From a virus: 64,000 bases of DNA. Position numbers and translations under genes: made by a program. The notes under the pieces were generated by a model. The model was not told where the DNA came from and did not search any database. It saw only the letters and a program-made list of their open reading frames with translations. The stretch lies in IMG/VR virus record IMGVR_UViG_3300032261_000561; one strand, given 5' to 3'. Each line of letters starts with the position of its first letter. Positions within the stretch are counted from its first letter, which is position 1. Below are positions 10,444 through 43,210 of the stretch, in pieces.

Positions 10444-10733
10444 GTGACCTTCGACGTGGTAAGGAATTTGGACGTGCTGTACGGGGTGGACGGCCGCTGC
10501 GGGATGTCGTCGGCCTGGTGCGGATGGATGCCCAGCATCCGCAGGATGTCACCTATCTCGGCGGGCGTGGCGCCGTGACGATCGCCCAGCAGGCAGATGG
10601 TGCGCCGGGCGGCCTTCTGCTGCTCGGGGGTCGGCTCGTCGAAGAACTCGACCTCATCAGTCAGCGCTCTGGTATCCCTGGCCACCTGCGTCCTCCCTTG
10701 TGCGTGGGGATCTGAGTATCTGATGCGCGTCAC
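10440..10733 (-). CDS. Hypothetical protein
   Basis: Translationally coupled between terminase and whiB. Confidence 0.7.
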   Translation of the reverse strand: MTRIRYSDPHAQGRTQVARDTRALTDEVEFFDEPTPEQQKAARRTICLLGDRHGATPAEIGDILRMLGIHPHQADDIPQRPSTPYSTSKFLTTSKVT

Positions 10734-12913
10734 GGTCTGCCCGTTCTGGGCATAGATCCGCGCACGTTGATCGACTGGGTGCGTGTCGGTGTGTAGCGCA
10801 CCCGCGACGAACGGTTCTGGCTGAGCATCTGCCGGGCCGGGTTGTCGGTGGCCCCCAACTTGTCGTCCAGCTGGGAGGCCAGCCGGTTGATGGCGCCGGT
10901 GCGGATCAGCTCGCGGCCGCTTTTCAGACCCGCCGCCTCCGTCGACCCGAACGACGGGGTGGTCAGGCTCCTGCCGTTGTAGCGGTCCAGGGAGTCACGC
11001 AGCAGCTCGGTGGCCACCACACTGACCGCGTCGAAGAGGTCTTTGGTGGTCACCGGCCCGATGTCCTGCTTGACCACCTTGCCCTGGCGCTCGGCCAAAA
11101 AGCGCATCTCCATTTCCAGCAGGGAGCCGCCATCCTCGTAGAAGACGTCGCGGTAAGAATGCATCCAGCCCAGGTTGAGCGCGGACTTGAACTTCTCCAT
11201 CCGGCGCTGGTTCTCCTTCTCGGTGAACAGCACCTCGCCCACCATGATGCGCGGGGAGAACCGTTGACGCAGCTGGGCGATGCCCAGCGCGGAGTCATAC
11301 TGGTCGAAGCTGATCTTGGTGGTGGAGGGGTAGCGTTCCAGGAACCTCGCGATCTCCTCCATCACCCTGATGTAGTCAATCTGGCGCCGCCCGTCCTCGT
11401 CGGGCTCGGATTCGCCGGGCTTCCAGACGTGCAGCATGTCGAACATGACGTGCGGCCAGTGCATGCCCGGGAACGGCTCCCGGCGTTCCAGGCAGGCCTT
11501 ACAAGGATGGAAAGTCTCGGCGTAGTCGGGCATCTGCCCGCAGCGGTCGCACGGCGCGATCTCGGTGTGCCCGATGGCCAACGCGAAATTCGCGCCGGTG
11601 CGCGACGGGTCGCAGTGGATTCGGTAGCGGTAGTACAGCTTACCCTGGCTCTGGGCTTCCAACGGCGGACGCCAGCCGGGCGGGCGGAACATGGCCTCCA
11701 CGCTCAGCGGATCCAGGTAGGCGCCTTCGACGTCGGCGAACTGGCCGCGCCGCTCCACGCGGAACTTCTGCGGGTTTTTGATCTCCATGCGCTTCATGCG
11801 CAAGTTCTCCGGCAGTTCGCCTTCCGGGGGGTAGGTGACCGGGCGCCGGATCGTCTGGCCGATCAGCTCGGGCCCGCGCTGCCAGTCCTCGTAGAGGCCC
11901 CAGCTGGGCAACTGCAGGATCAGCATCTCGGGATCGGAGGTGAGCCGCTCGATCTCCTCCTCGGCATCCAGTCGCAGACTGCGCTCGGTCTGCTGCACCA
12001 TCTCGCCCTGATAGTTGGGCATCCAGACGCTGCCCTCCTGGTAGAGCCGGTAGAAGATCCCAATTTTCGTGAAGGGGCTACTGGGCACGAACGTCAAGCC
12101 GTCCTTGGCAAACTGGTCCAGCGATGGCTGCCACGCGGTGTAGATCTCCTCGCCGGATTTCACCGACCCGGTGCCCAGCACCATGTGCGCCATCTCGTCG
12201 TAGAAGTTGGCAAAGCCGACGCCACCACGCCCGGCCGACGAGCTGGATGACAGCGCCACGCCGGTCAGCGAGGCAATCTCGTGCTCGACGGTGACACCGG
12301 CCGCTTTCAGCTCCGCGATATAGCGGATGTCGGCCGGGGTGCGGATGGAGAAATAGTGATCTTTCGACGTCGCGATGTGCGGCTGCAGGTATTTGCAGCG
12401 CTCCACGGTGCGCCGCACGTCGGCGAACTGGAACCGCTGCGCCTGGTTCTGGTTGGTGGCCACCACCGAGAGCACGCCGTTCTGGCCACGGTCGATGTCG
12501 TAATAGGCCTGCCAGTCGTCCAGGCTGTAGAAGTAGGCCAGCTGCTCGCAGCCCAGCCCGCCGCCGATCAGGCCCTTAGACCCGCGTCGGCCCAGCACCA
12601 GCTGGATGTGCGGGAACCGCCGGTAACCGTTGCGCTTGAGATAGTCGACGCGCTCCCAGATGTCGGGCTGCACTCCGAAGGTGTCCCGGCGGCGCAGGAA
12701 GCCCTGGCGCCAGCTCTCGATGACCTCCAAGTCGTACTCGGTCATCAGGTCGGTTTCTAAGAAGACCAGCCGGTACAGCGTCTGCTGGCGCGGGTAGAGG
12801 CGCCGCCCGCAGAAACTGCGGTGGGTCATGAAGTCCACCGAGGACTCCCACGGCGCAGGCCGAGTCAGCGACTGAGTAAACAAGGAGGCGGGACTAAAGG
12901 GTCCCTGGATCAA
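10730..12913 (-). CDS. terL: Terminase large subunit
   Basis: LYPRQ adenine motif, GRRGSK Walker A, FYDE Walker B, PSSP coupling motif, HCDPS / SFDQY / KDLFDA nuclease motifs. Confidence 0.9.
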   Translation of the reverse strand: MIQGPFSPASLFTQSLTRPAPWESSVDFMTHRSFCGRRLYPRQQTLYRLVFLETDLMTEYDLEVIESWRQGFLRRRDTFGVQPDIWERVDYLKRNGYRRFPHIQLVLGRRGSKGLIGGGLGCEQLAYFYSLDDWQAYYDIDRGQNGVLSVVATNQNQAQRFQFADVRRTVERCKYLQPHIATSKDHYFSIRTPADIRYIAELKAAGVTVEHEIASLTGVALSSSSSAGRGGVGFANFYDEMAHMVLGTGSVKSGEEIYTAWQPSLDQFAKDGLTFVPSSPFTKIGIFYRLYQEGSVWMPNYQGEMVQQTERSLRLDAEEEIERLTSDPEMLILQLPSWGLYEDWQRGPELIGQTIRRPVTYPPEGELPENLRMKRMEIKNPQKFRVERRGQFADVEGAYLDPLSVEAMFRPPGWRPPLEAQSQGKLYYRYRIHCDPSRTGANFALAIGHTEIAPCDRCGQMPDYAETFHPCKACLERREPFPGMHWPHVMFDMLHVWKPGESEPDEDGRRQIDYIRVMEEIARFLERYPSTTKISFDQYDSALGIAQLRQRFSPRIMVGEVLFTEKENQRRMEKFKSALNLGWMHSYRDVFYEDGGSLLEMEMRFLAERQGKVVKQDIGPVTTKDLFDAVSVVATELLRDSLDRYNGRSLTTPSFGSTEAAGLKSGRELIRTGAINRLASQLDDKLGATDNPARQMLSQNRSSRVRYTPTRTQSINVRGSMPRTGRP

Positions 12914-15269: not shown

Positions 15270-15279
15270 GGGTGGGCGC

Positions 15280-16005
15280 TCATGCGACTGGCGTGGGCAG
15301 GGTCCCAGCTGGTTGCAGGTTGATGACGACGGCGCCGTAGCGGGCGTACACCTTGGGCGAGCCTGCCGGTTTGTTCTGCAGCAGGATCGTGCCGGGGCCC
15401 TGGTGGTCCCCCACCCAGAAGTTGCTATTAGCGTCCAGGAAGCGCTGGGTGGCGTGTCCGGTTCCGCTGATCTGGCCGTCGGAGCCGATGAAAATCACCG
15501 ACAGCGAGCCCATGAAAGCCGGGATGGGCACCGAGATGAAGCGGCCCTGTCCCCGGCGGCCGGTGACGCCTTTGCGCAGCGCCTGATCGGGAATCCCGGC
15601 GACACCCTTGTAGGTCAGCGAGATCCCGCTGTACTGACTGAAGGTGGCCGACGCGGGCGAGAGCGGATCGTTGGCGATCTGGCTGTAGCCCAGGTTGGCC
15701 ACCACCGATCCGCCTGCGGCGGCCGCGCCGACACCCGCCCAGACTTCGATCAGACCGGGACGCGGAGCACCCCAACCCTTGCCGCGCTGGGCATACCAGG
15801 GGATCAGCGGGGTCAGCGCATTACCGCCCACGGTGACGGTGCGGGTGATGCTCTTGTCGATCGGGCAGGTGTGGTTGTACTGGAAGCCCACCAGGATGAG
15901 ATTGGCCTGGGCGCCAGAAGTGTGGGTCCACCCTGAATTCAGCGTGTTGGTGTTCGGCCCGGCCACGATCTGGCCGCCGGAAACAGCATCGAAAGTCACG
16001 GGCAT
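15280..16005 (-). CDS. Probable virion/minor tail protein
   Basis: MPVTFDAVS start, beta-rich, in late module. Confidence 0.55.
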   Translation of the reverse strand: MPVTFDAVSGGQIVAGPNTNTLNSGWTHTSGAQANLILVGFQYNHTCPIDKSITRTVTVGGNALTPLIPWYAQRGKGWGAPRPGLIEVWAGVGAAAAGGSVVANLGYSQIANDPLSPASATFSQYSGISLTYKGVAGIPDQALRKGVTGRRGQGRFISVPIPAFMGSLSVIFIGSDGQISGTGHATQRFLDANSNFWVGDHQGPGTILLQNKPAGSPKVYARYGAVVINLQPAGTLPTPVA

Positions 16006-16056: not shown

Positions 16057-17361
16057 TCACACACCAGGGCGGCCCGTGGCCTGAATATGTTGGGCGAGGG
16101 CGGCAGCCACCTGCTCCACCTGCTCGGGACTCAGGATCTCCAACAGCTCACCCTGCTCCACCCAGAAGAACGCGTTGTTGTCGGGGCCCCTCTCGGCGCG
16201 TTCGTATTTCGTCGCCCAATCGCCCGCGTTGGTGGCGAAGTGACCCACCGTCGCGACACCGGCCACCAAGTCCTCGAAGTTGATCTGACCCCGCTCGAAC
16301 TGTTCCATCAGCTCCCTGACGGTGGGCTCGGCAGAAAACTGCTGCGTGTCTTCTGCGGCCATGCGGAAGGCCCTTCTTCGTGCCTCGTGGACATTGGGAT
16401 AGACGGTGGATCCGCCCGCCGATAGCGGATGGTTGTGCCAGCGCTGGCCGGTGGTGTGAGTGACCACCGGATCGTTTCCCCTGACATCGAATCTTACCGA
16501 ACTGCTCAGCTGGGGCAGGGCCCAGTCGAACACCTCGGAATTCTTGGACGTATGCCCTCTCTGAGCCCCTTCGGGACTGGCCTTATTGAGATGGGAAGCG
16601 TAGCTGGCGACATACCGGCCGCCGTACTTTGGCTCCTCCCCCGGTTGGGGACCACCTCGCGCCTGCTGTTCGCGGTATTCCTCCTCAGGGCCTCGGTGGC
16701 GTTTCTCCACCCGCCGCCGCGCTTCTTCGGGAGATAGATCAGCGAACGCCCCATCGATCTGGCCGTAGCCATATTTGTGCAAATCATCGATGCGGCGTTG
16801 CACCGACTCGGGGGAACTCATGGTGATATCCCAGATCATGTTGCGCCGGTCCCGGTAGGCCAGCGCCGCCAGCTGGTCGGCCATCTCGGAGGACTCCTCG
16901 TGGATGATCCCGGCCCGCTCCATCGGGGAGAGCCTCGACAGGCCGTCCTCGCTGGGGACCATCCCCCGCCGGGCCATCTCCTCCTTGATGTCATCGGAGT
17001 TGACCGACATGTAGTTTTGCCCATTCAGCAGGGCCTGCGGGGTTTGGTTGAGCAGGTGGCCTTTACCCGATCCACCCAGCCCGCCCATAAACATGGCCTG
17101 ACCGTTCTGACCGACACCCTGCGAGAGCTTGGCATAGAGATCCTTGACCAGCTGGGCTTGCTGCCTACGACGCTCTGGGGTCCAGGAATAACCACCACCG
17201 GGCTGCGCGGTGCCATAGATCGCGCGACTGTCCCTCTGACGATCGTTATAGCCGCTGAGGACCTTCTCGACGTCGGCTATGTGCCGGGCATATCCTTCGT
17301 CGTTATCGAAGAAGGCAGCTAGTCGGTAGGCGAAAGCCTCACGCTGGCCAAGAATTCTCAC
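16057..17361 (-). CDS. Zeta-toxin (PezT-like) kinase with extra N- and C-terminal domains
   Basis: FMGGLGGSGK P-loop, VNSDDIK, HEESS, WDIT, GGRYV; GTG start overlapping upstream TGA. Confidence 0.85.
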   Translation of the reverse strand: MRILGQREAFAYRLAAFFDNDEGYARHIADVEKVLSGYNDRQRDSRAIYGTAQPGGGYSWTPERRRQQAQLVKDLYAKLSQGVGQNGQAMFMGGLGGSGKGHLLNQTPQALLNGQNYMSVNSDDIKEEMARRGMVPSEDGLSRLSPMERAGIIHEESSEMADQLAALAYRDRRNMIWDITMSSPESVQRRIDDLHKYGYGQIDGAFADLSPEEARRRVEKRHRGPEEEYREQQARGGPQPGEEPKYGGRYVASYASHLNKASPEGAQRGHTSKNSEVFDWALPQLSSSVRFDVRGNDPVVTHTTGQRWHNHPLSAGGSTVYPNVHEARRRAFRMAAEDTQQFSAEPTVRELMEQFERGQINFEDLVAGVATVGHFATNAGDWATKYERAERGPDNNAFFWVEQGELLEILSPEQVEQVAAALAQHIQATGRPGV

Positions 17362-17561
17362 CTCAGCTCCCACAGCGTCTCATTAGCATCGGTCACCGAC
17401 TGCGGACTCTTGGCGTCCAGCGCCTGGATCTCGCCCCTCTCCACCTTTTCCTGTAATCGCTTCCTAAGCCGCCCGTGCAGATCCTCCTCTTCAGGGGTGA
17501 ACACGATGGGCGGCCCGGCCGCGTAGAGCGCGAACGTCTCGGCCTGCCGGTAGATCCTCAT
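17358..17561 (-). CDS. 67-aa protein sharing an N-terminal leader with the zeta protein
   Basis: MRIYRQAETFALYA; AGGAG SD; coupled to zeta gene. Confidence 0.7.
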   Translation of the reverse strand: MRIYRQAETFALYAAGPPIVFTPEEEDLHGRLRKRLQEKVERGEIQALDAKSPQSVTDANETLWELR

Positions 17562-19155: not shown

Positions 19156-20472
19156 TTAGGCGGGAATCGGCAGCGCATACATGCTGGGCTCGAACGTGGA
19201 AGCGGTGACCCAGCCGGTGGCGGTGTTGTCGCCCACTACGCGCAGCAGGTTGACGTAGAGCGTCTGGTTCCCGGTCAGCGGACCCTGATCCGACAACGGA
19301 CCCGGCATGATGGTCAGCGGGCCCTCGACCCAGTCGCTGCCCGCCGGGTGCGCGGTGATGAACGCCAGCCCACCAGCGCCGTTGGTGCCCACGTTGGAGA
19401 TGAAAAGACCGCCGTTGCCTCCGGTGCCGCCGCCGCCGAAGCCGTAGCTCTGGTAGCCGATGCCGTTTAGTGTCACCGACCCAGCGCTCCCACCGGGCTG
19501 GGTGCCTTCGACGCCATAGCCTCCGGCGCCCCCGTTGGACTGAATGGCGGTGGTGTAAACGTAGGCGCCCGTCGGGGTCCCGGGCTGACCGGGATTGGAG
19601 AACACGGCGGCCGCGCCCCGGGCACCGCCGCTGCCCACCCAGCCGGTGATCTGGGTGACGGTGCTGGGCAGCACAGAGGAACCCCGCGTGAAACTGCCCG
19701 TGGCCCATAGGGCGGCGGCGCCGCCGTTGCCCCACAGGAACGGATTGCCCGCGCCGGATGCCCCGCCACCGCCGCCACCGAGCAAAATGACGTCGATGAC
19801 GTCCGACCAAGTGGGGATGGGATAGGTGAAACCTCCCGGGGTGGTGTACGCGGCGACCGTCGCCCCGGCGTAGTACTCGGTGCAGCCGTAACCCAGCGCA
19901 ACTATCGGGCCCGTCATCGAGCCCAACCGCACCAAACAGATCGGATAGTAACCGTCGCGGTTGGTGGAGCAGTCCAGGATGCCGCCCACCCAGAGCTTGA
20001 AGGTGTAGCCGGGGTCGTTCACCGTCCAGCTGTAGACGGTTTCCTCGGTCAGCCCGGCGGTGACCGGCAGGCTGAAATAGCTGCTCGGTGAGTAGTACGG
20101 GCTCGGCCAGCGCTGGGTGGAACCCAGGCCCAACCGGGAACGGTCCACCAGGGGTGAGGCCAGCCCCAGCCCGGCGATCCCATTGTTGTGGTTGACCTGG
20201 GATAGCTTGAGTCGCCCGGCGTCCCCGCCATTGGGGTTGTAGTTGGGGCTGCCCGACGACGCGGTGCCGTCCACGTAGATTTTGGTGGCGTTCAGCGCGG
20301 CCTGAGAGTTGACGTAGCTCAGGTCGGCATAGGGGGCGAAATCCTGAGCGATCAGCGCGTCGATGTCGGTCTGCGGCATGTTCAGCGCGGCCACCTGAGC
20401 GTTGACGTAGCCGACGGTGATCTTGTCCTTGGCGTTGGCGGGTTTGGCACCCACCCAGTTGCGTGCGCTCAC
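19156..20472 (-). CDS. Glycine-rich minor tail protein
   Basis: DVILLGGGGGG Gly-rich domain; VNDPGYTFK. Confidence 0.75.
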   Translation of the reverse strand: MSARNWVGAKPANAKDKITVGYVNAQVAALNMPQTDIDALIAQDFAPYADLSYVNSQAALNATKIYVDGTASSGSPNYNPNGGDAGRLKLSQVNHNNGIAGLGLASPLVDRSRLGLGSTQRWPSPYYSPSSYFSLPVTAGLTEETVYSWTVNDPGYTFKLWVGGILDCSTNRDGYYPICLVRLGSMTGPIVALGYGCTEYYAGATVAAYTTPGGFTYPIPTWSDVIDVILLGGGGGGASGAGNPFLWGNGGAAALWATGSFTRGSSVLPSTVTQITGWVGSGGARGAAAVFSNPGQPGTPTGAYVYTTAIQSNGGAGGYGVEGTQPGGSAGSVTLNGIGYQSYGFGGGGTGGNGGLFISNVGTNGAGGLAFITAHPAGSDWVEGPLTIMPGPLSDQGPLTGNQTLYVNLLRVVGDNTATGWVTASTFEPSMYALPIPA

Positions 20473-23400
20473 AGGTCGAATTCCTCCTGAAGCATCGGCT
20501 CGTAGTAACTGAACGGCTTGGGCACGCCCGCCTCGACGTCGGCCAGCATCATGTCCCGCAGGTGCTCGTAGTAGTCGGCCACCGCGTGATCCCCGTTTTG
20601 CCGGGCCCGGTAGATGCGGTCGGTGAACTTGTTGAGCTGCTTGCGCACATTCATGTCGGGCTCGATGCCGGTCTGGGACAGCCGCTTGCGCACCATGATC
20701 TCGGACTTACGCTTACGCTCGCGTTCCGCCTCCTCCTCATCCTCATCGAGGTCCTCGTCCCAGACCGCGCTATACCAGGGCGACTCGTCGATGTAGTAGG
20801 GCGCGTGGGACTGAGCCACCCGCCGCTCCTCAGGCGGGATCAGCGAGTCCATGTAAGTGTGCGGCCCAACGTCCACCTTGCGGATCACCGTGGCGTGCGG
20901 AGCCACCCAACCCTGACCGCCTGAGAGGTTCCAGGGCTGGGGGCGGTCACCGGGTTTAACCTCGTAGATGTTCGCACCGTGCCCGGCCCAGTTGCGCCAC
21001 CACTTGGCCTCATCGGGATTGCGCGACAGCCAGACGTGGTTGGGCCGGTTGGATTTACCCTTCTCGTAGAAGGACCATTCACCCTCGCCGCCGGGGGACG
21101 GGGCGCCACCCGGGACGATCCGATCGCCCGGCTTCATCTCATACGGGCTGGTGTGATACCACTTGCCGCTGGGCTTCTCGGGCAGATAAGTCGCCGGGTT
21201 GCCACCCTCTTCCAGCCAGTCCAGATCGCCGGGAATCATCTCTTTGAGCTTGAAGGTCCCGGCCGCTTCCAGCACGCGCATCGCGTGGGTCATGATGTCC
21301 TGGGCCGATGGCTCGTTCTCCCAGAGGTGCTTGCGCAGCTTAGTACCCGACTCACTGGTGTAGCCGGGATTCACCTGGTAGCCGGGATGGTCTTTGACCA
21401 TGCGCCGCAACAGCGAAGTGGCCACCCCTTGGCGCTGAACTTCGGGGTGGGTCGTCAACCAGTCGATGCCCAGGAAAGGCTTGGCATACTCCTCCTCGGG
21501 AGGGTAGCGGGTATAGGTGAGGCTCCCAGCCTCGTCACCCGAGATAGAGGGATGGGGAATGAAGTAGGTGCCCCCAGGACCGCGCCCAGGCTCACCTCTG
21601 GGCCGGTGCTGGATCTGGTCGGCCCATGGGTCGGGAAGTGAGGCATGCCGGATGGATGGCTGCTGGTTGCCCAGATGCCCCCAGTCGGGACTATCGGGGT
21701 CGTTGTAGACCTCCATCCACGGGCCCTTGCCGTAGCCCTCCTGCATCGGGATCCGGACGCTGTCGATGGCGATCCTGGCGTCAGGGCCCAGCACGTGCTC
21801 ACCCAGATGCGGATCCTCGCTGATGCGCGTCGCATGCTGGCCTTTACCGTCCCAGATGCCCGAGACGACGGCGGGGATCTGCCGGTGGCCGTGCTCGTCC
21901 CAGCCCAGGTTGTTGTAGGTCAGCGACTCGTGCGCCGCATTCTCGGCGATGGTGGGATCCTCCGACCAGTAGTGGCCCAAGCCGGGGTTGTCCTGCATAC
22001 CGCCCTGCTGGGTCTGCTCCATGTGGTCGAGGATCGCCGGGCCGATGGAAAAGTGCTTGAACTGCGGGTTGAAGTCATCTCCCCAGTCCAGGCCCGCCTT
22101 GATCTTCTGGCGCAGCTCGGGGGTCATGATGATGCCGACACCACGGTGCACGCGGATCGGCTGGGTGGGCGCCTGATACGGCGGCAGCGCGGCCACACGC
22201 TGCTGGGACACCCGGTGGGTGGGCATCGCCACCCTGCGCACGTTGCCCTCGGTGCCCTCGTAGTGTGCCAGCACGTCGATGATGACCGCCGCATCAGTCA
22301 CCCAGCCCTCACGGCCGGAGCCGTTCCAGGGGAAGGGGCCGAGCCGGGGCCGGACCTGGTACAGGTGGCACTCGCCGTGGTCGCGCACCATGTAGCCGAT
22401 CCAGTCGTCGGAGTGGGTCAGGTCCCACTCCACCCAGGTCCAGTGCGCCCGGTTGTCCAGCCCGCCGTGGTAGGGCTTGTCGGTCCAGGGCGGGTTGCCG
22501 TGCAGCGGGGCCAGGATGGTGCCGATCGGCAGATCGGCGGGGGTGGCGTGGAACCAGTCCACGTCGTTGGGGGTGTCGATCGGCGGGGACTCATCGTGGC
22601 GCTGGAACCAGTCCCACTGGTCGTAGGCGTCGTCGGCGTCGAGCAGGAAGCTGTGCATAGTGGCCTGGGGGTCCAGCGGATCCGCCGGGACACCCTGCAG
22701 CCAGGCCTGAGCAGTACGCCGGGGGGAGAGGGAGGCAATCATCCGGCCGGGCGTCGATGCTCGCTGCTGGGGCACCATATCCTCGTAGGCGTAAGACGTG
22801 CGCTTCCCGCAAACCGAGCACCGGCCCGAGAGGTGACCCTCGCCGTGGGAGGGGTCACAGCACGGCTCCCCACGCCAGCCCTGCGACTGGTGCAGCTCCA
22901 TCTCCTCGGGCGTCAGCTCGCGATGGGCCACCTTGCGGGTAATGGTGGCCGACGGCGCCACCCACCCATCGGTTCCGGATCCGTTCCAAGGAGCGGGATC
23001 TCGCTCGGGATCGACTTCGTAGATATGCGGGGCCTGGTTGACCGCCGACCAGAAGTGAGCATCGTCGAGATCTGGTGTCATCCAAACATGCTTGTTGCGG
23101 CCGCCGCCCATGTCTATCAGCGTGCCGGTGTCCTCCCCGAAGCCCTGCTCGTAGAAGTCCTTGCTGGCGGCTGGCGCACCGCCGGGGACCAGCTTGGTGC
23201 CCATCGGCAGATCGTGCGGAGAGGCGTGATACCAGGTGCCCGAAGGATTCTGTCTCTTGAAAAGATGCTCGAACGCTTCGGCGGGAATGGGCTTGACCTT
23301 CTGGGGCGGTCCAATCTTCGTCTTGATCGGGCCCTTCTGCTGGTTGACGAAGTCCATAAAAACCTTGGCCTCTTCGTCGGTCAGCTCGATGGCCTGCCTG

Positions 23401-23873
23401 TAGACGAACAGCGGCGTGCCCCGGGCGGTCCGCAACCCGGTGCGCGGTGGCGCCGACGAGGGATCACCGGGCAATGCCAGATGGGACTTCTCCGGATTCT
23501 CTTTCAGCAGCTGCTGTTTGAGCGCCTCCCCGTAGCCGGTGGTGTAACCGGGGTCGATGGCGATATTCGGGTGATCGTCGTGCATCTGCTGCATCAGCGA
23601 GCGGGCCACCCCTTGCCGCCGGTAGTCGGGGTGGGTGTCGATGGTCTTGACCATGATCCGGCCCGGCCTCTGGCGGACCGGGTTCTCGGGGTAGTAGAGA
23701 TATTCCAGCTTCCCGATCGGCGCGGAGGCGGGATCGGGGTGCGGGATGGAATAGTCCCCGGTGTCGTGCGGGATCCTGCCTCCCACTGAACGCACCTGGT
23801 GCACGATCTGCTCGGCCCACGGGTTGGGAGCGGCGGCGAGAGCGGCCAGAAACCGAGGCGACAGCACGGCCAT
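20469..23873 (-). CDS. Polyvalent protein: 2 GNAT acetyltransferase + 4 ADP-ribosyltransferase-like domains
   Basis: THPDYRRQGVA and THPEVQRQGVA; three W(Y/F)Hx(S/T)P...G...Y(E/Q)VxP...PWN units; one VHRGV...GHYWS unit. Confidence 0.85.
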   Translation of the reverse strand: MAVLSPRFLAALAAAPNPWAEQIVHQVRSVGGRIPHDTGDYSIPHPDPASAPIGKLEYLYYPENPVRQRPGRIMVKTIDTHPDYRRQGVARSLMQQMHDDHPNIAIDPGYTTGYGEALKQQLLKENPEKSHLALPGDPSSAPPRTGLRTARGTPLFVYRQAIELTDEEAKVFMDFVNQQKGPIKTKIGPPQKVKPIPAEAFEHLFKRQNPSGTWYHASPHDLPMGTKLVPGGAPAASKDFYEQGFGEDTGTLIDMGGGRNKHVWMTPDLDDAHFWSAVNQAPHIYEVDPERDPAPWNGSGTDGWVAPSATITRKVAHRELTPEEMELHQSQGWRGEPCCDPSHGEGHLSGRCSVCGKRTSYAYEDMVPQQRASTPGRMIASLSPRRTAQAWLQGVPADPLDPQATMHSFLLDADDAYDQWDWFQRHDESPPIDTPNDVDWFHATPADLPIGTILAPLHGNPPWTDKPYHGGLDNRAHWTWVEWDLTHSDDWIGYMVRDHGECHLYQVRPRLGPFPWNGSGREGWVTDAAVIIDVLAHYEGTEGNVRRVAMPTHRVSQQRVAALPPYQAPTQPIRVHRGVGIIMTPELRQKIKAGLDWGDDFNPQFKHFSIGPAILDHMEQTQQGGMQDNPGLGHYWSEDPTIAENAAHESLTYNNLGWDEHGHRQIPAVVSGIWDGKGQHATRISEDPHLGEHVLGPDARIAIDSVRIPMQEGYGKGPWMEVYNDPDSPDWGHLGNQQPSIRHASLPDPWADQIQHRPRGEPGRGPGGTYFIPHPSISGDEAGSLTYTRYPPEEEYAKPFLGIDWLTTHPEVQRQGVATSLLRRMVKDHPGYQVNPGYTSESGTKLRKHLWENEPSAQDIMTHAMRVLEAAGTFKLKEMIPGDLDWLEEGGNPATYLPEKPSGKWYHTSPYEMKPGDRIVPGGAPSPGGEGEWSFYEKGKSNRPNHVWLSRNPDEAKWWRNWAGHGANIYEVKPGDRPQPWNLSGGQGWVAPHATVIRKVDVGPHTYMDSLIPPEERRVAQSHAPYYIDESPWYSAVWDEDLDEDEEEAERERKRKSEIMVRKRLSQTGIEPDMNVRKQLNKFTDRIYRARQNGDHAVADYYEHLRDMMLADVEAGVPKPFSYYEPMLQEEFDL

Positions 23874-27725: not shown

Positions 27726-28448
27726 TCAGATGGTGTCGCGCACCTCATACCACTCGCCCTGCTCGTCCACGCGGACCAGCTTGGGCTCGTCGAGGATGGC
27801 CGCCGTCGGCTCCCACTTGGACCGGGAACCGAACTTCCAGGCCACCCGCGCCCTGTCCCGGGGCTGGCCGTCGAAGCGGGAGGCGATCAACGAGACGTTG
27901 TCGCGGTGGTTGACGATGCTGGGTCGGGTGTAGGCCACCATCAGGCCCTGCTCCCGGCACACCGTGGACACCGCGCGATCGGCGCACATCACCTTGGCGT
28001 TGCGTTCCACCCGGTCGGCCAGCCAGGGTGCCAGCTTGGTCTTGACCGCGTAGCCGACCATGGACAGCATCTCGGGCGCCAGCAGGAAGTGCGGATCGGC
28101 GCCGATCGGGTTCACCGACCGCTGCAGGACGGACTGCCAGTGAGTGGGATTGCCGGTACCCAGATAGAGACTGACGATCTGGGTGGGCGCCACCTTCAGG
28201 ATGGCATCCAGCTGGTGACGAAAGTGGTGCACCGGCAGCGCGTCGTCTTCGAGCACCACCGCCCAGCCGTCATCGGTCCCGCGCGGGTTGATCCGCGCGA
28301 TCTCATGCAATGCCTTGGCATGGTTGCGTTCACAGCCCATGCCAAGGCTGTCCCAGACGATCTCGTCACCCACCTGGGAGGCCAGCTGCTCGGCCATCGT
28401 CGCCCGGTGGGGATGGGCGACGATGAACACCTCAGTGCGCTTGGACAA
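27726..28448 (-). CDS. Glycosyltransferase (GT25-like)
   Basis: NH, VVLEDDA, VSLYLG, PSIVNH motifs. Confidence 0.8.
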   Translation of the reverse strand: MSKRTEVFIVAHPHRATMAEQLASQVGDEIVWDSLGMGCERNHAKALHEIARINPRGTDDGWAVVLEDDALPVHHFRHQLDAILKVAPTQIVSLYLGTGNPTHWQSVLQRSVNPIGADPHFLLAPEMLSMVGYAVKTKLAPWLADRVERNAKVMCADRAVSTVCREQGLMVAYTRPSIVNHRDNVSLIASRFDGQPRDRARVAWKFGSRSKWEPTAAILDEPKLVRVDEQGEWYEVRDTI

Positions 28449-28586: not shown

Positions 28587-30101
28587 TCACTCTTCCTCGT
28601 CCTCCTGGTCGTCGGTCTCATCGTCATTTACCGGGTAACCATCGGCTTCCCGGTCCCACATGCCGTTGACGAACGTCAGCCCGCCATCGACATAACGCTT
28701 GGAGTACTGCAGCCGCCGTGTCTGGGTCATGTAATCCCAGGCCGAATGGTACAGCGGCTCGGGCAGCTCCCCGTCCAATTCGGGCTCCGGCGTGTCAGGG
28801 CGCTCGGGCAGGTCCAGCTCGGCCAGGTCGGCCCGCTCGGTGGCCTCGGAGGCTAGCCGGGGCAGCTCCTCGCGGATCTCGCCCAACCGCTGCTGCAGGT
28901 CGCTGAAGTCGCGTCCGCCCAGGTGCTCGTCGATCGCCCGCTGGGCCTCGGCCAGCCATGCCTGCTCGGCCTCACGCACCCGGTCGTCCAGCGTCTCGTC
29001 GAAGTAGGGCTGGACCGCGTCGGCCACCAGCTGGGGCAACACATCGGGCGCCAGTGCCAACAGCGCATCTATCTCGGTCTGCTCCACCCCGTAGCGCACC
29101 GACCAGTTCTCCCGGCGCCGGTCCTCCTGGGTGACCGGGGACTGCGGCAACATCTGCTCGTTGCCGTCGGCATCGGTGTAGCGGATCTCCTCCGACACCT
29201 GCCTGGGAGTCAGCGCCGCCCGGTCGACGATCAGCTCCAACTCACCGAAGCCGTCCAGGTCGTCGATCCACTCCCTGTCCTCCCAATGCTGCAGGGCCTG
29301 CAGCTTGCGGGTCACGCTGATGCACATCTGGTGCCCGCTCGGGTCACAGTCCGCGAAATACAGAATCACACAAGGCCTGCCGTCCTGCACCGCGTTGGCC
29401 GCGATGCGGAACACGTAGTAGTCGCTGATCTCGCCGGTGGGCAGATACAGATCGGCACGGTAGCGCTCGGCCAGCGGCGCCAGCGTCGCGTACAGGCTGG
29501 ACTTCTCCCCGATGAACACCAGGTGATAGGGCTGCCGGGCCACCAGCAGACCCTCCTGCCCGTCATCGCGCTCGGGCGTCTGCTGGGAGTGCAGAGTGGG
29601 CAGCACGTCGTTGGGCAGCTGGAACTCGTCGTTCACCTCGGCCCACAGCCCGCCCGGGAACGGCTCCTCGTACAGCCGCTCCTCGGGCGCATCGTTGCGC
29701 TCGTCGGTGATCTCGTCGAACGGGATCAGACCCAACCAGCGCGCCGACTTGATGGCGTTCTCGCCCAGCCACACCCAGTCACTGTGCAAATTGTTGATGC
29801 CCAGCGCGTCATCGACCAACCCATAGCGCAACCCATCCGGCTTGATCACCTGCCTCGACAGGAACACGTAGTGCAGGCCGCGTGGATGGATCCGGCTCCG
29901 TCCCATCACCGCGCGCTTGGTGTCGGCCAACCATTGGCCGTCCCGCCAGGCCGCCGGTCGATCGAACCAGAACGGGTCCTTGCCATCGGACAGCACCAGC
30001 CATTTCTTCGGGCTGGCCATCCGCCGCCAGCCGACCTCCTTGGCGGCCCCGACGATGTCCTGAATCAGCTTCGCCAACGGGTGGCTCAGTTCTCGTGCCA
30101 T
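28587..30101 (-). CDS. TOPRIM (Topo VI-A/JetD-like) domain protein
   Basis: RGLHY, ARWLGLIPF, IGEK, FADCDPSG, EIDAL; AAGGAGAGACACAC-ATG start. Confidence 0.75.
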   Translation of the reverse strand: MARELSHPLAKLIQDIVGAAKEVGWRRMASPKKWLVLSDGKDPFWFDRPAAWRDGQWLADTKRAVMGRSRIHPRGLHYVFLSRQVIKPDGLRYGLVDDALGINNLHSDWVWLGENAIKSARWLGLIPFDEITDERNDAPEERLYEEPFPGGLWAEVNDEFQLPNDVLPTLHSQQTPERDDGQEGLLVARQPYHLVFIGEKSSLYATLAPLAERYRADLYLPTGEISDYYVFRIAANAVQDGRPCVILYFADCDPSGHQMCISVTRKLQALQHWEDREWIDDLDGFGELELIVDRAALTPRQVSEEIRYTDADGNEQMLPQSPVTQEDRRRENWSVRYGVEQTEIDALLALAPDVLPQLVADAVQPYFDETLDDRVREAEQAWLAEAQRAIDEHLGGRDFSDLQQRLGEIREELPRLASEATERADLAELDLPERPDTPEPELDGELPEPLYHSAWDYMTQTRRLQYSKRYVDGGLTFVNGMWDREADGYPVNDDETDDQEDEEE

Positions 30102-30135
30102 GTGTGTCTCTCCTTGATCTCGGGCCCCGACGGGC

Positions 30136-30435
30136 CTAGACCATCGGTGGTTGATGGTCATTGAGTCGATGGCACCGGGCGCATCGAGGTACATATCGGT
30201 CGAGGTCCAAGCTGAAGGTATAACCCGTTCTGGGGTCAGACTTCGCTTCCGGGTCGGTCCCGTTGTATGACCATTCTTTCGCGGGAGCGGCACAGTCAAC
30301 GCATGTATGTTCCGACGCCTTGCCCCGCCTCCGAACCAATCTCCGATGGAGGCCGTGGTAACTGACCGCATCACCGACCCAGTTTTGGTTCTCGGTTCCC
30401 CACTTCGGGGGAAGCTTGTGCCGATAGTTGGTCAG
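30136..30435 (-). CDS. Small HNH-like endonuclease, probable CTG start
   Basis: YHGLHRR, CVDC, WSY, PRCARCH; AGGAG 7 nt before CTG. Confidence 0.6.
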   Translation of the reverse strand: MTNYRHKLPPKWGTENQNWVGDAVSYHGLHRRLVRRRGKASEHTCVDCAAPAKEWSYNGTDPEAKSDPRTGYTFSLDLDRYVPRCARCHRLNDHQPPMV

Positions 30436-40093: not shown

Positions 40094-40417
40094 TCAGGCC
40101 ACCTCTTCGTAATGCCAGCTGTAGTTGTCGCCGTTCCATTCCAAGATGATCGCTTGCCAACCAGGTCCGCGCACCGGCTGCTCGTCGCCGTCGTAGCACT
40201 CCTCGGGGGCGTCCTCGGTCAGCCAGGGCATCTGCATGCATTGGCCTTGATCGGTCCAGCCGTCCCGACTGCCACACTCACACTGCTCGTACTGGGCGCG
40301 GATACAGCTATCGCAGGCCAACCGGCACGCCGCCCCCTCTGGGGCACGGCACTCGTACTCGGTGCGAACGTGGTCACCCGATCGAATCAAATGACGCACA
40401 TAATGGTCACTCATCAT
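40094..40417 (-). CDS. Cys-rich hypothetical protein
   Basis: C.APEGAACR..C motif. Confidence 0.7.
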   Translation of the reverse strand: MMSDHYVRHLIRSGDHVRTEYECRAPEGAACRLACDSCIRAQYEQCECGSRDGWTDQGQCMQMPWLTEDAPEECYDGDEQPVRGPGWQAIILEWNGDNYSWHYEEVA

Positions 40418-41466
40418 GCCCCGATCTCGTAGTCGCTGATGACCTCACCGGCGTCCTTGGAGCCCCGCACCTGCCAGCCCCACCAATAGGTGCCGACGTG
40501 CTTGCCCAGCAGCGGCGCCTCGGCGGTGAACGTCTTGAAATGCCCGCGCACCCGGTGCTGGCTCATCACGTACTCCTCGGCCGGGGACCGGCGGCGCCGA
40601 CCGTGGCGCAGTTCGCGACCGGCGGTACCGGGCAGCTCGATGGTGTGATAGCGGGTGATCGGCACCCGCTGGCGCTTCTCCCGGGTGCTGCGCGCAAAGA
40701 CGCTGCCCTGCTCGCGAGTGGTCACGTTGCGACAGTTGATCAAATTCAGCGCCAGCCACACCGGGTTGGCGTCCCCGATCTCCTTGGCGGCGTGCAGGGT
40801 CTCCTCGGGCACCTGGGACGTCGGGACCATGTCGGAGATGAAGTGATTGAACAGTCCGTCGGGGTTCAGCCCGATCTGGCGGGCGTAGGGCAGAAAGACC
40901 ACGCCGTCATTCGCGTCGAGGATGTACATGATCACCTGCACGGCGATCATCTCGCGGGCATCGGCGCGCAACTCGTCGCGCAGTGCCTTGAACGCATCCG
41001 CATCGCGGATCATGTCATCCAGGTTGGTCTCGGGGTTGCGCTTGAAGTACTTGGGATACATCTGGGCGAAGCCGGTGATCGAGCCGCGCAGCTGCTCCTC
41101 GTCGAGGTCGGCGGTGTTGATGGTGTCACTGATCACCAGGGCGCCGAACCGGGCCCTGGCTTCCATGTCCCACCACTTGCCGTGGATCAGCACCTTGTCG
41201 GGGACTTCCCACTCGCACCACATGGCGGGGTATGGCGGGCGCATCGGCCCGAAGTCGGAGTCCAGCCGGTAGTAGTCCTGCTTGCCCAGCCAGTACAGGT
41301 CGGCGGCCACCGACAGCTCGAAGAACGCCACCCGATCGCCCAGCAGGTGGGTGCGCACGTTGTCCTGGTTGACCATGTCCAGCCCGTGGCCATCCAGCGA
41401 GCGGATGGGGGCGCCCGACTTGAGCAGGTTGGCGATCGGGAATTTACCGGCGCTCAATCCGGCCAC
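40414..41466 (-). CDS. Hypothetical phage protein (HxVRGH family), paralog 1
   Basis: PYPAMWCEW; NCRNVTT; HRVRGHFK...WWGWQVRG. Confidence 0.8.
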   Translation of the reverse strand: MAGLSAGKFPIANLLKSGAPIRSLDGHGLDMVNQDNVRTHLLGDRVAFFELSVAADLYWLGKQDYYRLDSDFGPMRPPYPAMWCEWEVPDKVLIHGKWWDMEARARFGALVISDTINTADLDEEQLRGSITGFAQMYPKYFKRNPETNLDDMIRDADAFKALRDELRADAREMIAVQVIMYILDANDGVVFLPYARQIGLNPDGLFNHFISDMVPTSQVPEETLHAAKEIGDANPVWLALNLINCRNVTTREQGSVFARSTREKRQRVPITRYHTIELPGTAGRELRHGRRRRSPAEEYVMSQHRVRGHFKTFTAEAPLLGKHVGTYWWGWQVRGSKDAGEVISDYEIGA

Positions 41467-41774
41467 CTCCCTTCGTATCCGCCGTAGATGGGGTCCATGC
41501 GCCCGGTCAGCCGCCATACACGCCCGGTAAAGACGTAGTCAGGATCAGGATCGGGAGCGGGCGGCAGCTTGAGCAGCGTGCCGGTAACATCGACCTCGTC
41601 GCCCTCCTGTGCGTCGGCCGGTCGCTCGGGGAAGATCACCGTCCACCAGGGCGGCGGGTCAGCGAGGAAGGTGGCGTGAAAGTACACCACCGGGCAGTCG
41701 ATCATGATGTCGCCGTCCCAATAGATCTCCCAATGGGTCTCGTCGGTCTCGTAGCGAATGTCTCCCTGCATCAT
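41454..41774 (-). CDS. Hypothetical protein
   Basis: Coupled ORF. Confidence 0.7.
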   Translation of the reverse strand: MMQGDIRYETDETHWEIYWDGDIMIDCPVVYFHATFLADPPPWWTVIFPERPADAQEGDEVDVTGTLLKLPPAPDPDPDYVFTGRVWRLTGRMDPIYGGYEGRWPD

Positions 41775-42757
41775 GACTCATCTCCCCGTGCCAGCTCGTA
41801 GTCGGAGAAGATGACACCCTCGTTGATGTCGCCACGCTCCTGCCAGCCCCACCAGAATGTCCCAGCAAGCCTCCCGAACAGCAGCCCGGTGCCGAACTCG
41901 GGCCCGAAGTGTTTGTAGTGGCCTTTCACCTTGTGCAGCCGCATCGCGGCCTGATACGCCTCCCGGTCGCGGCGACTGATCCCGGTCAGCTTGGGCATGC
42001 CGGGCAGCTTGATGTGGTGGTATTCCACCGGCTTGGCGCCCGTCCGCTTGGCCCGACCACTGCGGCGCATCGGCACCACCCCCGCCTTCTCGGTGGTCAC
42101 GTTGCGGCAGTTCATCAGGTGCAGCGCCTGGCTGGCGGTGAACTCCGCAGTGCGCATCAGTTCCTGGGCCGTCGTGACCAGATCCGGCCGGTCGGCCAGG
42201 TTGTCGGGCACTTCGATCTGCGCGCTGTAGGTGTAGCGGCCGTTCTCGTCCAAGTACATGTCGTGCAGGATCTCGTCGAACAGCACCACGTCGGGGTGCT
42301 GGACCGGGTGCATGAACAGCGTCATCTGGATGCGGCTTGCCGCCATCTTCCTGCCGGATGCCGGGGCGTGTTCGTCGGGCTCGCACTCGGTCAGCATCAT
42401 CCCCTGGAAGATGTTGTTGTCGGACGGGTGCGCGGGATCCCACTCCATCCACATGTGCGGGTAGGGCATGCGCAGCGACCCGAAGTTCTCCTCACGGCGG
42501 CAGGCGATGCTATCGAAGCGGTCCCAGAAAAGGTCGTGGGCCAGCTGGACGTCGAACGGCACGCAGGCGGTGATTTCGCGCAGAAAGCTCAACCGGAGGT
42601 CTTCTTTCAGCGCGATCGACTCGTCCTGGTAAAGCCCCCACGGCGTGGTATACCCACCGAAGCCGTCGGCCTCGGTAGCCTCGTACAACGCGCGAGCCAG
42701 CGGCCAGATCTTGGCGCCGCCCATCAGCGCGCGCAACACCGGCATCGGAGCACTCAT
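41771..42757 (-). CDS. Hypothetical phage protein (HxVRGH family), paralog 2
   Basis: PYPHMWMEW; NCRNVTT; HKVKGHYK...WWGWQERG. Confidence 0.8.
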   Translation of the reverse strand: MSAPMPVLRALMGGAKIWPLARALYEATEADGFGGYTTPWGLYQDESIALKEDLRLSFLREITACVPFDVQLAHDLFWDRFDSIACRREENFGSLRMPYPHMWMEWDPAHPSDNNIFQGMMLTECEPDEHAPASGRKMAASRIQMTLFMHPVQHPDVVLFDEILHDMYLDENGRYTYSAQIEVPDNLADRPDLVTTAQELMRTAEFTASQALHLMNCRNVTTEKAGVVPMRRSGRAKRTGAKPVEYHHIKLPGMPKLTGISRRDREAYQAAMRLHKVKGHYKHFGPEFGTGLLFGRLAGTFWWGWQERGDINEGVIFSDYELARGDES

Positions 42758-43210
42758 AAGCCCACCAACTCTTCCAGCTTGCGCAGAAACCAGTCCCAGC
42801 CGTCCTCGTCGAGATCCGGCCGGTTGCAGCCCTCCCACAACGCGTGCTCGGTCGTCCACTTCCAGGGTTTCTCGAAGTAGTAGAGCAGGTCTTTAGCGGT
42901 GTCGAGATGGTCGGCACGCACCAGGACACCGCCGAACATCAGCACCGAATTCGGGTTGTGGAACCACTCCTCGTCGGTCATCAGTGCGCCTCCTCGTACT
43001 CGGTGGCGGCTTTGACGGCGTCGCGTTTGGTGGCGAACAGGAACTGCTTGGGATAGGCCGCGTCCACGCTCAGCGACCACTGCGTGCCGAAGCGCTCGAT
43101 GGCGTAGGTGTGATCCAGCTTGGCGAAGCCCCAGTAGGCCCTGGACCGATAGCGCCCGGCGCCCTCGCGGATGAACGGGATCTCTTTGGTCATGAAACCC
43201 GGCTTGTCGC

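Follow-up and report, generated by a model that had tools for sequence, protein, structure and literature searches.

Two adjacent genes with a common N-terminal tag

The virus record IMGVR_UViG_3300032261_000561 was analyzed over a stretch of 64,000 nucleotides, hereafter the window, in which codon-position GC content places all credible genes on the minus strand. We focus on two adjacent genes of this strand, one encoding a zeta-type kinase of 434 amino acids (aa) and the other, directly upstream, a protein of 67 aa. Both proteins begin with the same short peptide, referred to here as the tag or, in an individual protein, as its leader. An earlier reading made from the letters of the window (the sequence-only reading) had proposed that this leader may be a capsid-targeting signal, and the two genes are found on the minus strand where that reading placed them:

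17358..17561, minus strand: gene of the 67-aa protein, with a 15-residue leader and an acidic body of about 52 aa; GGAG ribosome-binding site
17517..17561, minus strand: leader of the 67-aa protein, residues 1-15; 38.8 bits; invariant in nine orthologues despite synonymous codon changes
16057..17361, minus strand: zeta/AvrRxo1-like kinase gene, 434 aa; start GTG 17361, forming a GTGA overlap with the stop of the 67-aa gene
17314..17361, minus strand: leader of the kinase, residues 1-16; 37.2 bits; I3, Q6, R7 and E8 invariant in nine full-length homologues

The longest open reading frame (ORF) of the zeta gene begins at GTG 17373. We consider GTG 17361 the better start, because it creates the GTGA overlap and has GGAG upstream, because all full-length homologues start at this position, mostly with ATG, and because a recorded 434-aa protein of 99% identity starts there as well.

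Read from this start, both proteins begin with M-R-I-x-x-Q-x-E-x-F-A. The tag as a whole follows the consensus M-[RK]-I-h-x-Q-[RA]-E-x-[FY]-[AG]-[YFL]-x-h-small and comprises about 15-16 residues of amphipathic helical character. That the two leaders resemble each other beyond chance is borne out by the six-frame translation of the 64 kb, in which the pattern R-[ILV]-x-x-Q-x-E-x-F-A occurs twice, both times at these N-termini. With a position matrix built from related leaders (the tag matrix), which yields the bit scores given above, the next best position in the window reaches 8.8 bits.

Orthologues of the 67-aa protein are few and 67-103 aa long; they hardly vary over their first 11 residues, take up insertions from just behind residue 15 onward, and have a pairwise identity of 0.96 in the leader versus 0.46 in the body. 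The nine full-length kinase homologues, which are 39-52% identical, keep the N-terminal motif, with an identity of 0.69 for the leader versus 0.50 for the body. Residues R2, Y4, R5, A7, T9, F10 and A11 of the tag are retained while their codons differ, and since the same residues are written with different codons, selection acts on the tag peptide rather than on the RNA; an RNA-level cause of the shared start is thereby ruled out. The AlphaFold model shows the kinase leader as a helix at residues 2-15 with a predicted local distance difference test (pLDDT) value of ~50, outside the well-predicted core and not confidently packed on it.

The sequence-only reading had further pointed to an internal YRQA string in a polyprotein as a related site:

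23391..23408, minus strand: polyprotein YRQA segment, judged coincidental; the homologous segment, which forms the N-terminus of a shorter orthologue in the relatives L004 and G001, has no YRQA

The string is present (from 23405), but the homologous position differs in the relatives and no score against the tag matrix exceeds 7, so that this part of the proposal is not supported. The 1134-aa protein encoded at 20469-23873 (minus strand) contains two GNAT regions recognized by Pfam and three ART-like repeats of the form W-[YF]-H-x-[ST]-P ... I-Y-E-V. Its N-terminus resembles a degenerate tag, sharing M, L4, S5, R7 and A11 at <7 bits, and Phrappuccino gp195, in the same position after the phrog_2824 gene, has a clearer one.

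The tag on unrelated proteins of related phages

The scans for the leader motif covered the window and its relatives. The latter were obtained by an alignment-based scan of viral contigs, a single-protein scan of viral contigs having found none, and one of them, the 143.6-kb relative G001 (96% complete), was scanned whole. The sequence-only reading depended on the leader recurring on other virion proteins, and the extended scan detected the tag on other virion-region proteins of the relatives. Exactly five ORFs of G001 score 33-41 bits, the next best reaching 14. They encode the small protein, a 202-aa ART-like protein, the kinase, a 239-aa NadD-like protein with a weak Pfam match to CTP_transf_like, and a 321-aa ART/ParB-like protein with an ART-like motif and a weak ParB_N match. 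The carriers of the G001 zeta cluster lie beside minor-tail genes, and the genes of the NadD-like and ART/ParB-like carriers are found in the stretch from the major head gene (phrog_2522) to the tail sheath gene (phrog_2839). The tagged 202-aa protein, recognizable by an ART-like L-Y-R-G motif, is shared by L004 and G001, and a 239-aa protein also bears the tag in L003.

The mycobacteriophage Phrappuccino has at least five carriers of a diverged tag, gp57, gp67, gp68, gp75 and gp195. The 1088-aa gp57, encoded two genes after the major head gene, has the tag at its N-terminus and a zeta domain at its C-terminus, with a second, internal copy of the tag just before the zeta domain. Both gp67 and gp68 follow gp66, and in gp68 the tag directly abuts the start of the domain; gp195, a protein of ~2030 aa, follows the virion protein gp194. 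In gp75 (L001:24556-24648), located after the gene in tail-tube position, a tag-like sequence of 24 bits begins two residues in, and one may ask whether tail assembly also makes use of the tag; a tag-like start of 14 bits is likewise seen after the tail-tube-position gene of G001 (70241-70504).

For the mycobacteriophage Alice (cluster C1), the specific pattern gave three forward matches and none in the control. The matching proteins are gp98 and gp99, which follow head genes, and gp115, which follows gp114. On the uncultured contig L042 (GC 54%), the tag was found on four ORFs within ~6 kb, including one SLT, one NlpC/P60-like and one GNAT-like protein. According to Pfam and PHROG, the carriers are non-homologous, matching Zeta_toxin, SLT (8e-10), DUF7178 and, each weakly, CTP_transf_like, ParB_N, GNAT and NlpC/P60. 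Across ~520 kb of fetched loci, a count that leaves out those pre-selected by an ATG-initial pattern, all matches of at least 13 bits lie within three residues of a start codon.

One genomic position holds different tagged genes in three lineages, namely the slot after the phrog_2791 gene (G001 63553-64542, Alice gp114, Phrappuccino gp66). It is occupied by the NadD-like and ART/ParB-like genes in G001 (63553-66226; L034:3553-6226), by a GNAT-like gene in Alice and by a gene with an ART-like domain in Phrappuccino, and thus looks like an exchangeable cargo cassette.

Scanning a viral-contig collection with a general leader pattern returned mostly chance matches, plus G001 and one new carrier contig, L042; the strict pattern, applied to metagenome contigs, returned two near-identical relatives of the window only. 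Among zeta relatives, the tag is confined to the subfamily that also has the C-terminal domain described below, and the polyprotein of L017 showed no clear internal tag before its zeta domain. Taken together, the tag is a portable module: at least three actinophage lineages place it at the start of unrelated proteins whose genes belong to head, neck or tail modules.

The relatives also encode an untagged protein of ~190 aa (L003:794-1363, L004:5221-5808, G001 15279-15851), positioned between the small tagged protein and the tagged gene that comes next; the window lacks it. It has a D-C-S-G motif and the look of an NlpC/P60-type cysteine peptidase, with no Pfam match.

Genomic setting

The order of genes on the minus strand, from 5' to 3', is a 993-aa virion structural protein (phrog_2824), the 1134-aa multidomain protein, three minor-tail genes, the 67-aa gene, the kinase gene, a 241-aa gene, lysin A, a membrane protein, a 68-aa protein and the terminase. 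The statement of the sequence-only reading that both genes sit among late structural genes agrees with their place between three minor-tail genes on one side and the lysis genes and terminase on the other; the late timing of the carriers is deduced from gene position only. A sigma-70-type promoter scan from 12.8 to 24 kb found none between genes, and the terminator-like matches were unconvincing.

The terminase (10730-12913) is ~50% identical to the terminases of Phrappuccino, Myrna, and Gordonia and Rhodococcus myoviruses, and a megablast search of the locus against phage records gave no DNA-level match. Because of this distance from the known terminases and the lack of a DNA-level phage match, we regard the window as part of a new large soil actinophage; the phage is of the lytic type and distant kin of Phrappuccino, Myrna and Alice. 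As to the terminase of Phrappuccino, gene 2 (NC_054727.1 1699-4839 versus MK937592.1) is named 'DarB-like antirestriction' in RefSeq and 'terminase' in GenBank; its terminase match is split into two pieces over 3.1 kb, which suggests an insertion, perhaps an intein.

Further genes of the window's minus strand include a glucosyltransferase-like gene (27726-28448; phrog_854, E 3.5e-57) and a topoisomerase-like gene (28587-30374; phrog_6247), both just upstream of the virion structural block, and two neighboring paralogues of 367 and 362 aa (40414-41517 and 41771-42859), both assigned to phrog_20769, a family whose function is not known.

The kinase

The catalytic part of the kinase gene is delimited as follows:

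16447..17301, minus strand: P-loop kinase core, residues 21-305; Walker A at 17059-17085, conserved Asp123; pLDDT >90

Residues 92-229 match the Pfam family Zeta_toxin (PF06414) with 59.5 bits against a cutoff of 22.3 (E 3.9e-16), and the zeta domain also matches a PHROG annotated as 'minor head protein'. Residues G93, G94, G97, G99, K100, D123, R221 and R249 are invariant among 52 aligned sequences; those of the P-loop (G93, G94, G97, G99, K100) and D123 are also invariant in the nine full-length homologues. From its position in the motif, we take D123 to be the equivalent of zeta Asp67. In Foldseek searches, the kinase model (pLDDT 86.9) matched zeta toxin (3q8x_D, E 1.6e-7; 1gvn_D, E 7.5e-7) and PezT (2p5t_F, E 2.2e-5), the top matches ranging from 1.6e-7 to 2.7e-5. 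The match to AvrRxo1 (4z8v_A, E 2.3e-7, TM-score 0.40/0.51, 18% identity) is not distinguishable from that to zeta. A sequence-profile search of the kinase family against the PDB yielded no match with an E-value of 0.01 or below.

The profile, the motifs and the fold make the protein a member of the zeta family, and it looks catalytically intact; it is not part of an epsilon/zeta toxin-antitoxin module, as discussed below. Zeta acts on uridine diphosphate N-acetylglucosamine (UDP-GlcNAc), AvrRxo1 on nicotinamide adenine dinucleotide (NAD). The occurrence of NadD-like and ART-like proteins under the same tag gives a hint, and only a hint, toward NAD over UDP-GlcNAc as the substrate of the tagged kinase.

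The C-terminal domain and its junction with the kinase

Beyond the core, the kinase gene encodes two further elements:

16357..16380, minus strand: junction 'RRRAFRMA', residues 328-335; Shine-Dalgarno (SD)-like purine run at 16371-16379 and in-frame ATG at 16360-16362
16060..16332, minus strand: acidic five-helix C-terminal domain, residues 344-434 (~90 aa); isoelectric point 4.5; model pLDDT 82

The sequence-only reading had interpreted RRRAFRMA as a second processing site that separates the kinase from an acidic domain. The segment does precede such a domain, but the conserved SD-like run and ATG point to a fusion joint or an internal start rather than to a protease site. The in-frame Met is kept in eight of nine homologues, and an SD-like 5-mer precedes the junction ATG in the window, L002, L003 and L004, that is, in four diverged lineages. 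This 5-mer is written largely with AGR codons for Arg, which make up 10.5% of the Arg codons in window genes; as a background value, 9-10% of internal ATGs are preceded by an SD-like 5-mer.

Residues 335-434, used as the query in an exhaustive search, yielded 22 relatives, either fused to zeta kinases (in one case within a 1261-aa protein) or stand-alone. The stand-alone proteins are 82-103 aa long, and many of them start exactly at the domain boundary or with M-A-[DE]-[DE], which the fused form matches with its M-A-A-E-D at the boundary. Phrappuccino gp58, a 90-aa protein, is a homologue of the domain (hhalign 98.1%, E 1.3e-13), and its gene lies directly downstream of that of the zeta-bearing gp57. 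Searches with the fold of the domain gave no match to a solved chain, the best values being E 0.86 in Foldseek and Z 5.7 in VIA, the latter in the range of generic helical bundles.

The parsimonious reading of these sequences is that the junction arose when two once-adjacent genes fused and that selection still maintains the ribosome site and the start; the free C-terminal domain may also be made from the internal start. We prefer a fusion or internal start to a protease site because it explains the Arg run and the Met better. The junction region is modelled as a linker of low pLDDT, and cleavage within it may be compatible with the fusion as well. Because of its constant linkage to this kinase, the C-terminal domain is suggested as a kinase partner that probably binds or regulates the enzyme, in an immunity-like, chaperone-like or regulatory capacity. 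The idea of the sequence-only reading that the domain is a separable regulator of the kinase is thus plausible, given that Phrappuccino encodes it as a gene of its own right after the zeta domain and that it is found elsewhere as a free-standing protein.

Comparison with known systems

The tag resembles the capsid targeting sequence (CTS) of the phage T4 internal proteins IPI-III, which Alt also carries, in being a short N-terminal peptide common to unrelated late myovirus proteins, including small proteins and NAD-using enzymes. Here, too, such a peptide occurs on unrelated proteins of one phage, and the carriers are encoded with virion genes. The T4 CTS is a tag of ~10 aa that loads internal proteins, or any protein fused to it, into the head and is cut off once (10.1101/2021.01.19.427310). 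The tag described here differs in its length (15-22 residues), in the phage group, which is one of actinophages, and in having several carriers next to tail genes; moreover, it is known from sequence alone. Aligned by eye, the T4 10-mer and the tag show a similar order of M, basic, Y, Q, E, F and A, only with gaps, in a stretch too short for statistics. On the features that can be tested in silico, the tag appears to function like the T4 CTS, without detectable homology. The literature searched contained nothing relevant on this tag or on virion proteomics of cluster C or AA phages; the tag is not described there and appears to be new.

With respect to the kinase, two systems offer a comparison. 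AvrRxo1-ORF1/ORF2 of Xanthomonas consists of a type III effector kinase and a small partner. The effector has a zeta-fold kinase and is delivered into another cell, and the small helical partner, whose gene comes right after that of the kinase, binds to it. A possible parallel to this partner is the gp58/C-terminal domain family, a five-helix domain in downstream or fused position, without a fold match to any solved chain. Identity is only 14-18%, however, and delivery here would be by the virion rather than by a secretion system. Epsilon/zeta and PezAT share with the tagged kinase the Pfam Zeta_toxin domain, Walker A, the conserved Asp and the top structural matches. They differ from it in that the present locus has no epsilon- or PezA-like upstream antitoxin and lies among phage late genes, and that its kinase has an extra N-terminal tag and a fused C-terminal domain.

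Concerning delivery, zeta-like kinase, ART, GNAT and peptidoglycan hydrolase domains have been inferred to be packaged and injected by phages as polyvalent or MuF-fused toxins (Iyer et al. 2017, PMC5512222). Capsid delivery is deduced in that work without any tag, and the phrase 'N-terminal signal' has 0 occurrences in it (PMC5512222). Phrappuccino gp57 and gp195 and the 1134-aa protein of the window are polyvalent in this sense, whereas many of the effectors considered here are solo proteins with a common short tag, fused neither to MuF nor to each other. Large multidomain effectors are represented by gp57 (1088 aa) and the 1261-aa protein P0072; the kinase of the window is a stand-alone protein of 434 aa. 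The Dar system of P1, with head-packaged DarA, DarB and others, is another case of a myovirus that fills its head with a set of proteins for injection, but there is no sequence relation. Loading in P1 is hierarchical and is not known to depend on one common short tag. The term 'capsid targeting sequence' is used in a paper on P1 virion assembly (PMC9024508).

Possible roles of the tag

We consider it probable that the tag loads its carriers into the virion in one way or another, and rate the chances as about even that it is a virion-loading tag, most plausibly for the head, analogous to the T4 CTS. According to this model, the tag would dock the carriers to a component of the assembling virion, with the prohead interior as the most plausible site, in analogy to the T4 CTS; the carriers would then travel in the particle and be delivered with the DNA, and the tag may be cut off at its small-residue end. 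In the next host, the kinase would act early on a nucleotide-sugar or NAD. Its C-terminal domain, putatively a separate downstream gene in former times that was fused with SD and ATG retained, may yield free domain in addition.

With respect to cleavage, a protease domain (phrog_18299) is encoded in G001. Small residues close the leaders, in many cases as R-h-A with acidic residues behind it, which is only suggestive. Near residue 15, a G-R-[FY]-A (E-R-F-G-A-A in G001) is common to the major head proteins of G001 (L033:16896-17909), Alice (gp92, L070:3791-4792) and Phrappuccino (gp55, L001:8191-9192), and S-D-[DE] comes after it. It is possibly a short propeptide site similar to the leader ends, and it fits, as a pattern only, the rule of the sequence-only reading that such motifs end in Ala. 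The more specific version of the model, in which head loading is coupled to removal of the tag, is less likely to be true than false. A similarly tentative, and rather doubtful, extension would make the tag a cleavable, portable signal for head loading and injection across Bixzunavirus (cluster C1), Phrappuccino-like phages and related uncultured actinophages. During the first minutes of infection, exchangeable effectors, several of them NAD-centered (zeta/AvrRxo1-like kinase, NadD-like, ART-like), would then do their work, perhaps countering defences that deplete NAD or are based on the cell wall, with the C-terminal domain, also made free from the internal start, keeping the kinase harmless in the producing cell.

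Several observations weigh against loading into the head. In the literature searched, there was no experiment demonstrating that any carrier is packaged, cleaved or injected. In the window, the tag is found on just two genes, with the head genes outside the window. The neighbors of the zeta cluster are tail and lysis genes, not head genes, and a type of carrier follows the tail tube gene; therefore, a docking role at the tail or baseplate is conceivable. The Alice carriers gp98, gp99 and gp115 are recorded as 'hypothetical protein' without the note 'structural' that gp107 and gp120 have. Finally, two leader probes gave no match in Myrna, Pupper, Finch and Stormageddon, where diverged variants could escape the probes.

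If the tag had no part in loading, it could be the site for a shared cytoplasmic partner, such as a protease, a modifying enzyme or the degradation machinery, or an autoinhibitory or regulatory helix on potentially toxic late enzymes, and the kinase with its C-terminal domain would form a self-contained toxin-immunity unit. The position of the separable domain just downstream of the zeta domain in Phrappuccino, which is the typical toxin-immunity order, and the conserved internal SD and ATG, which could supply free domain, are in line with this explanation. We regard it as unlikely, given that no conserved enzyme gene was seen beside the carriers, whose common trait is their location in structural gene modules, and that the tag is also present on small, non-toxic-looking proteins.

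Alternatively, the tag could dock its carriers elsewhere on the virion, at the tail lumen, the baseplate or the neck, or to an assembly chaperone that they share, neither directing them to the head interior nor being cleaved. The zeta clusters of the window and G001 directly follow minor-tail genes, the gene behind the one in tail-tube position encodes a tag-like N-terminus in Phrappuccino (gp75) and a weakly tag-like one in G001, and the SLT and NlpC/P60-like carriers act on the cell wall. However, the enzymes that make up most of the carriers (kinase, NadD-like, ART-like, GNAT, ParB-like) have their substrates in the cytoplasm and need to get into the cell, and several carriers are encoded right beside head genes, making such a role unlikely.

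The possibility, raised in the sequence-only reading, that the 67-aa protein keeps the kinase inactive would correspond to a classical epsilon/zeta-type pair, with the small protein as the antitoxin and the shared N-terminus incidental. The window shows the epsilon/zeta gene order, with a small acidic protein immediately upstream and overlapping stop and start codons. The order is not conserved, however: the small gene adjoins the kinase gene only in the window and the near-identical contigs L071 and L072, it is next upstream with a 57-bp gap in L002, and one or two other genes separate it from zeta in L003, L004 and G001. The protein has no Pfam or PHROG match and is most constrained in the tag, which is common to non-kinase proteins, and the genes are co-directional within late genes, with no promoter-like site found. 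A complex prediction for the kinase core with the 67-aa protein scored 0.02, which gives no verdict and is not evidence either way. An antitoxin function is therefore very improbable, and the most fitting description of the 67-aa protein is that of a small cargo with a tag, in kind like the T4 internal proteins. That the similarity of the leaders is a relic of local duplication or a functionless chance match, as the presence of the tag on two adjacent genes only might suggest for the window, is hardly credible, since amino acids are conserved while codons differ, the same tag is found on unrelated proteins of several diverged phages, always N-terminally, and scores of 33-41 bits have no plausible chance origin.

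Implications

Even without a role in loading, a 16-residue peptide that is more constrained than the proteins behind it must have a conserved binding partner. The junction between the kinase and its C-terminal domain presents a testable case of an internal start kept after gene fusion, and what looked like a late-gene 'toxin' is recast as an effector that is probably delivered and brings its own partner domain. Should the tag prove to be a loading signal, it would open a way to package foreign proteins into mycobacteria-infecting particles, and could be used as a tool to deliver chosen proteins into mycobacteria by phage particles. It would also provide a one-line rule for finding such effectors and would define the set of injected proteins of a large, much-used group of mycobacteriophages, in which the Alice-like C1 phages carry the tag on three genes.

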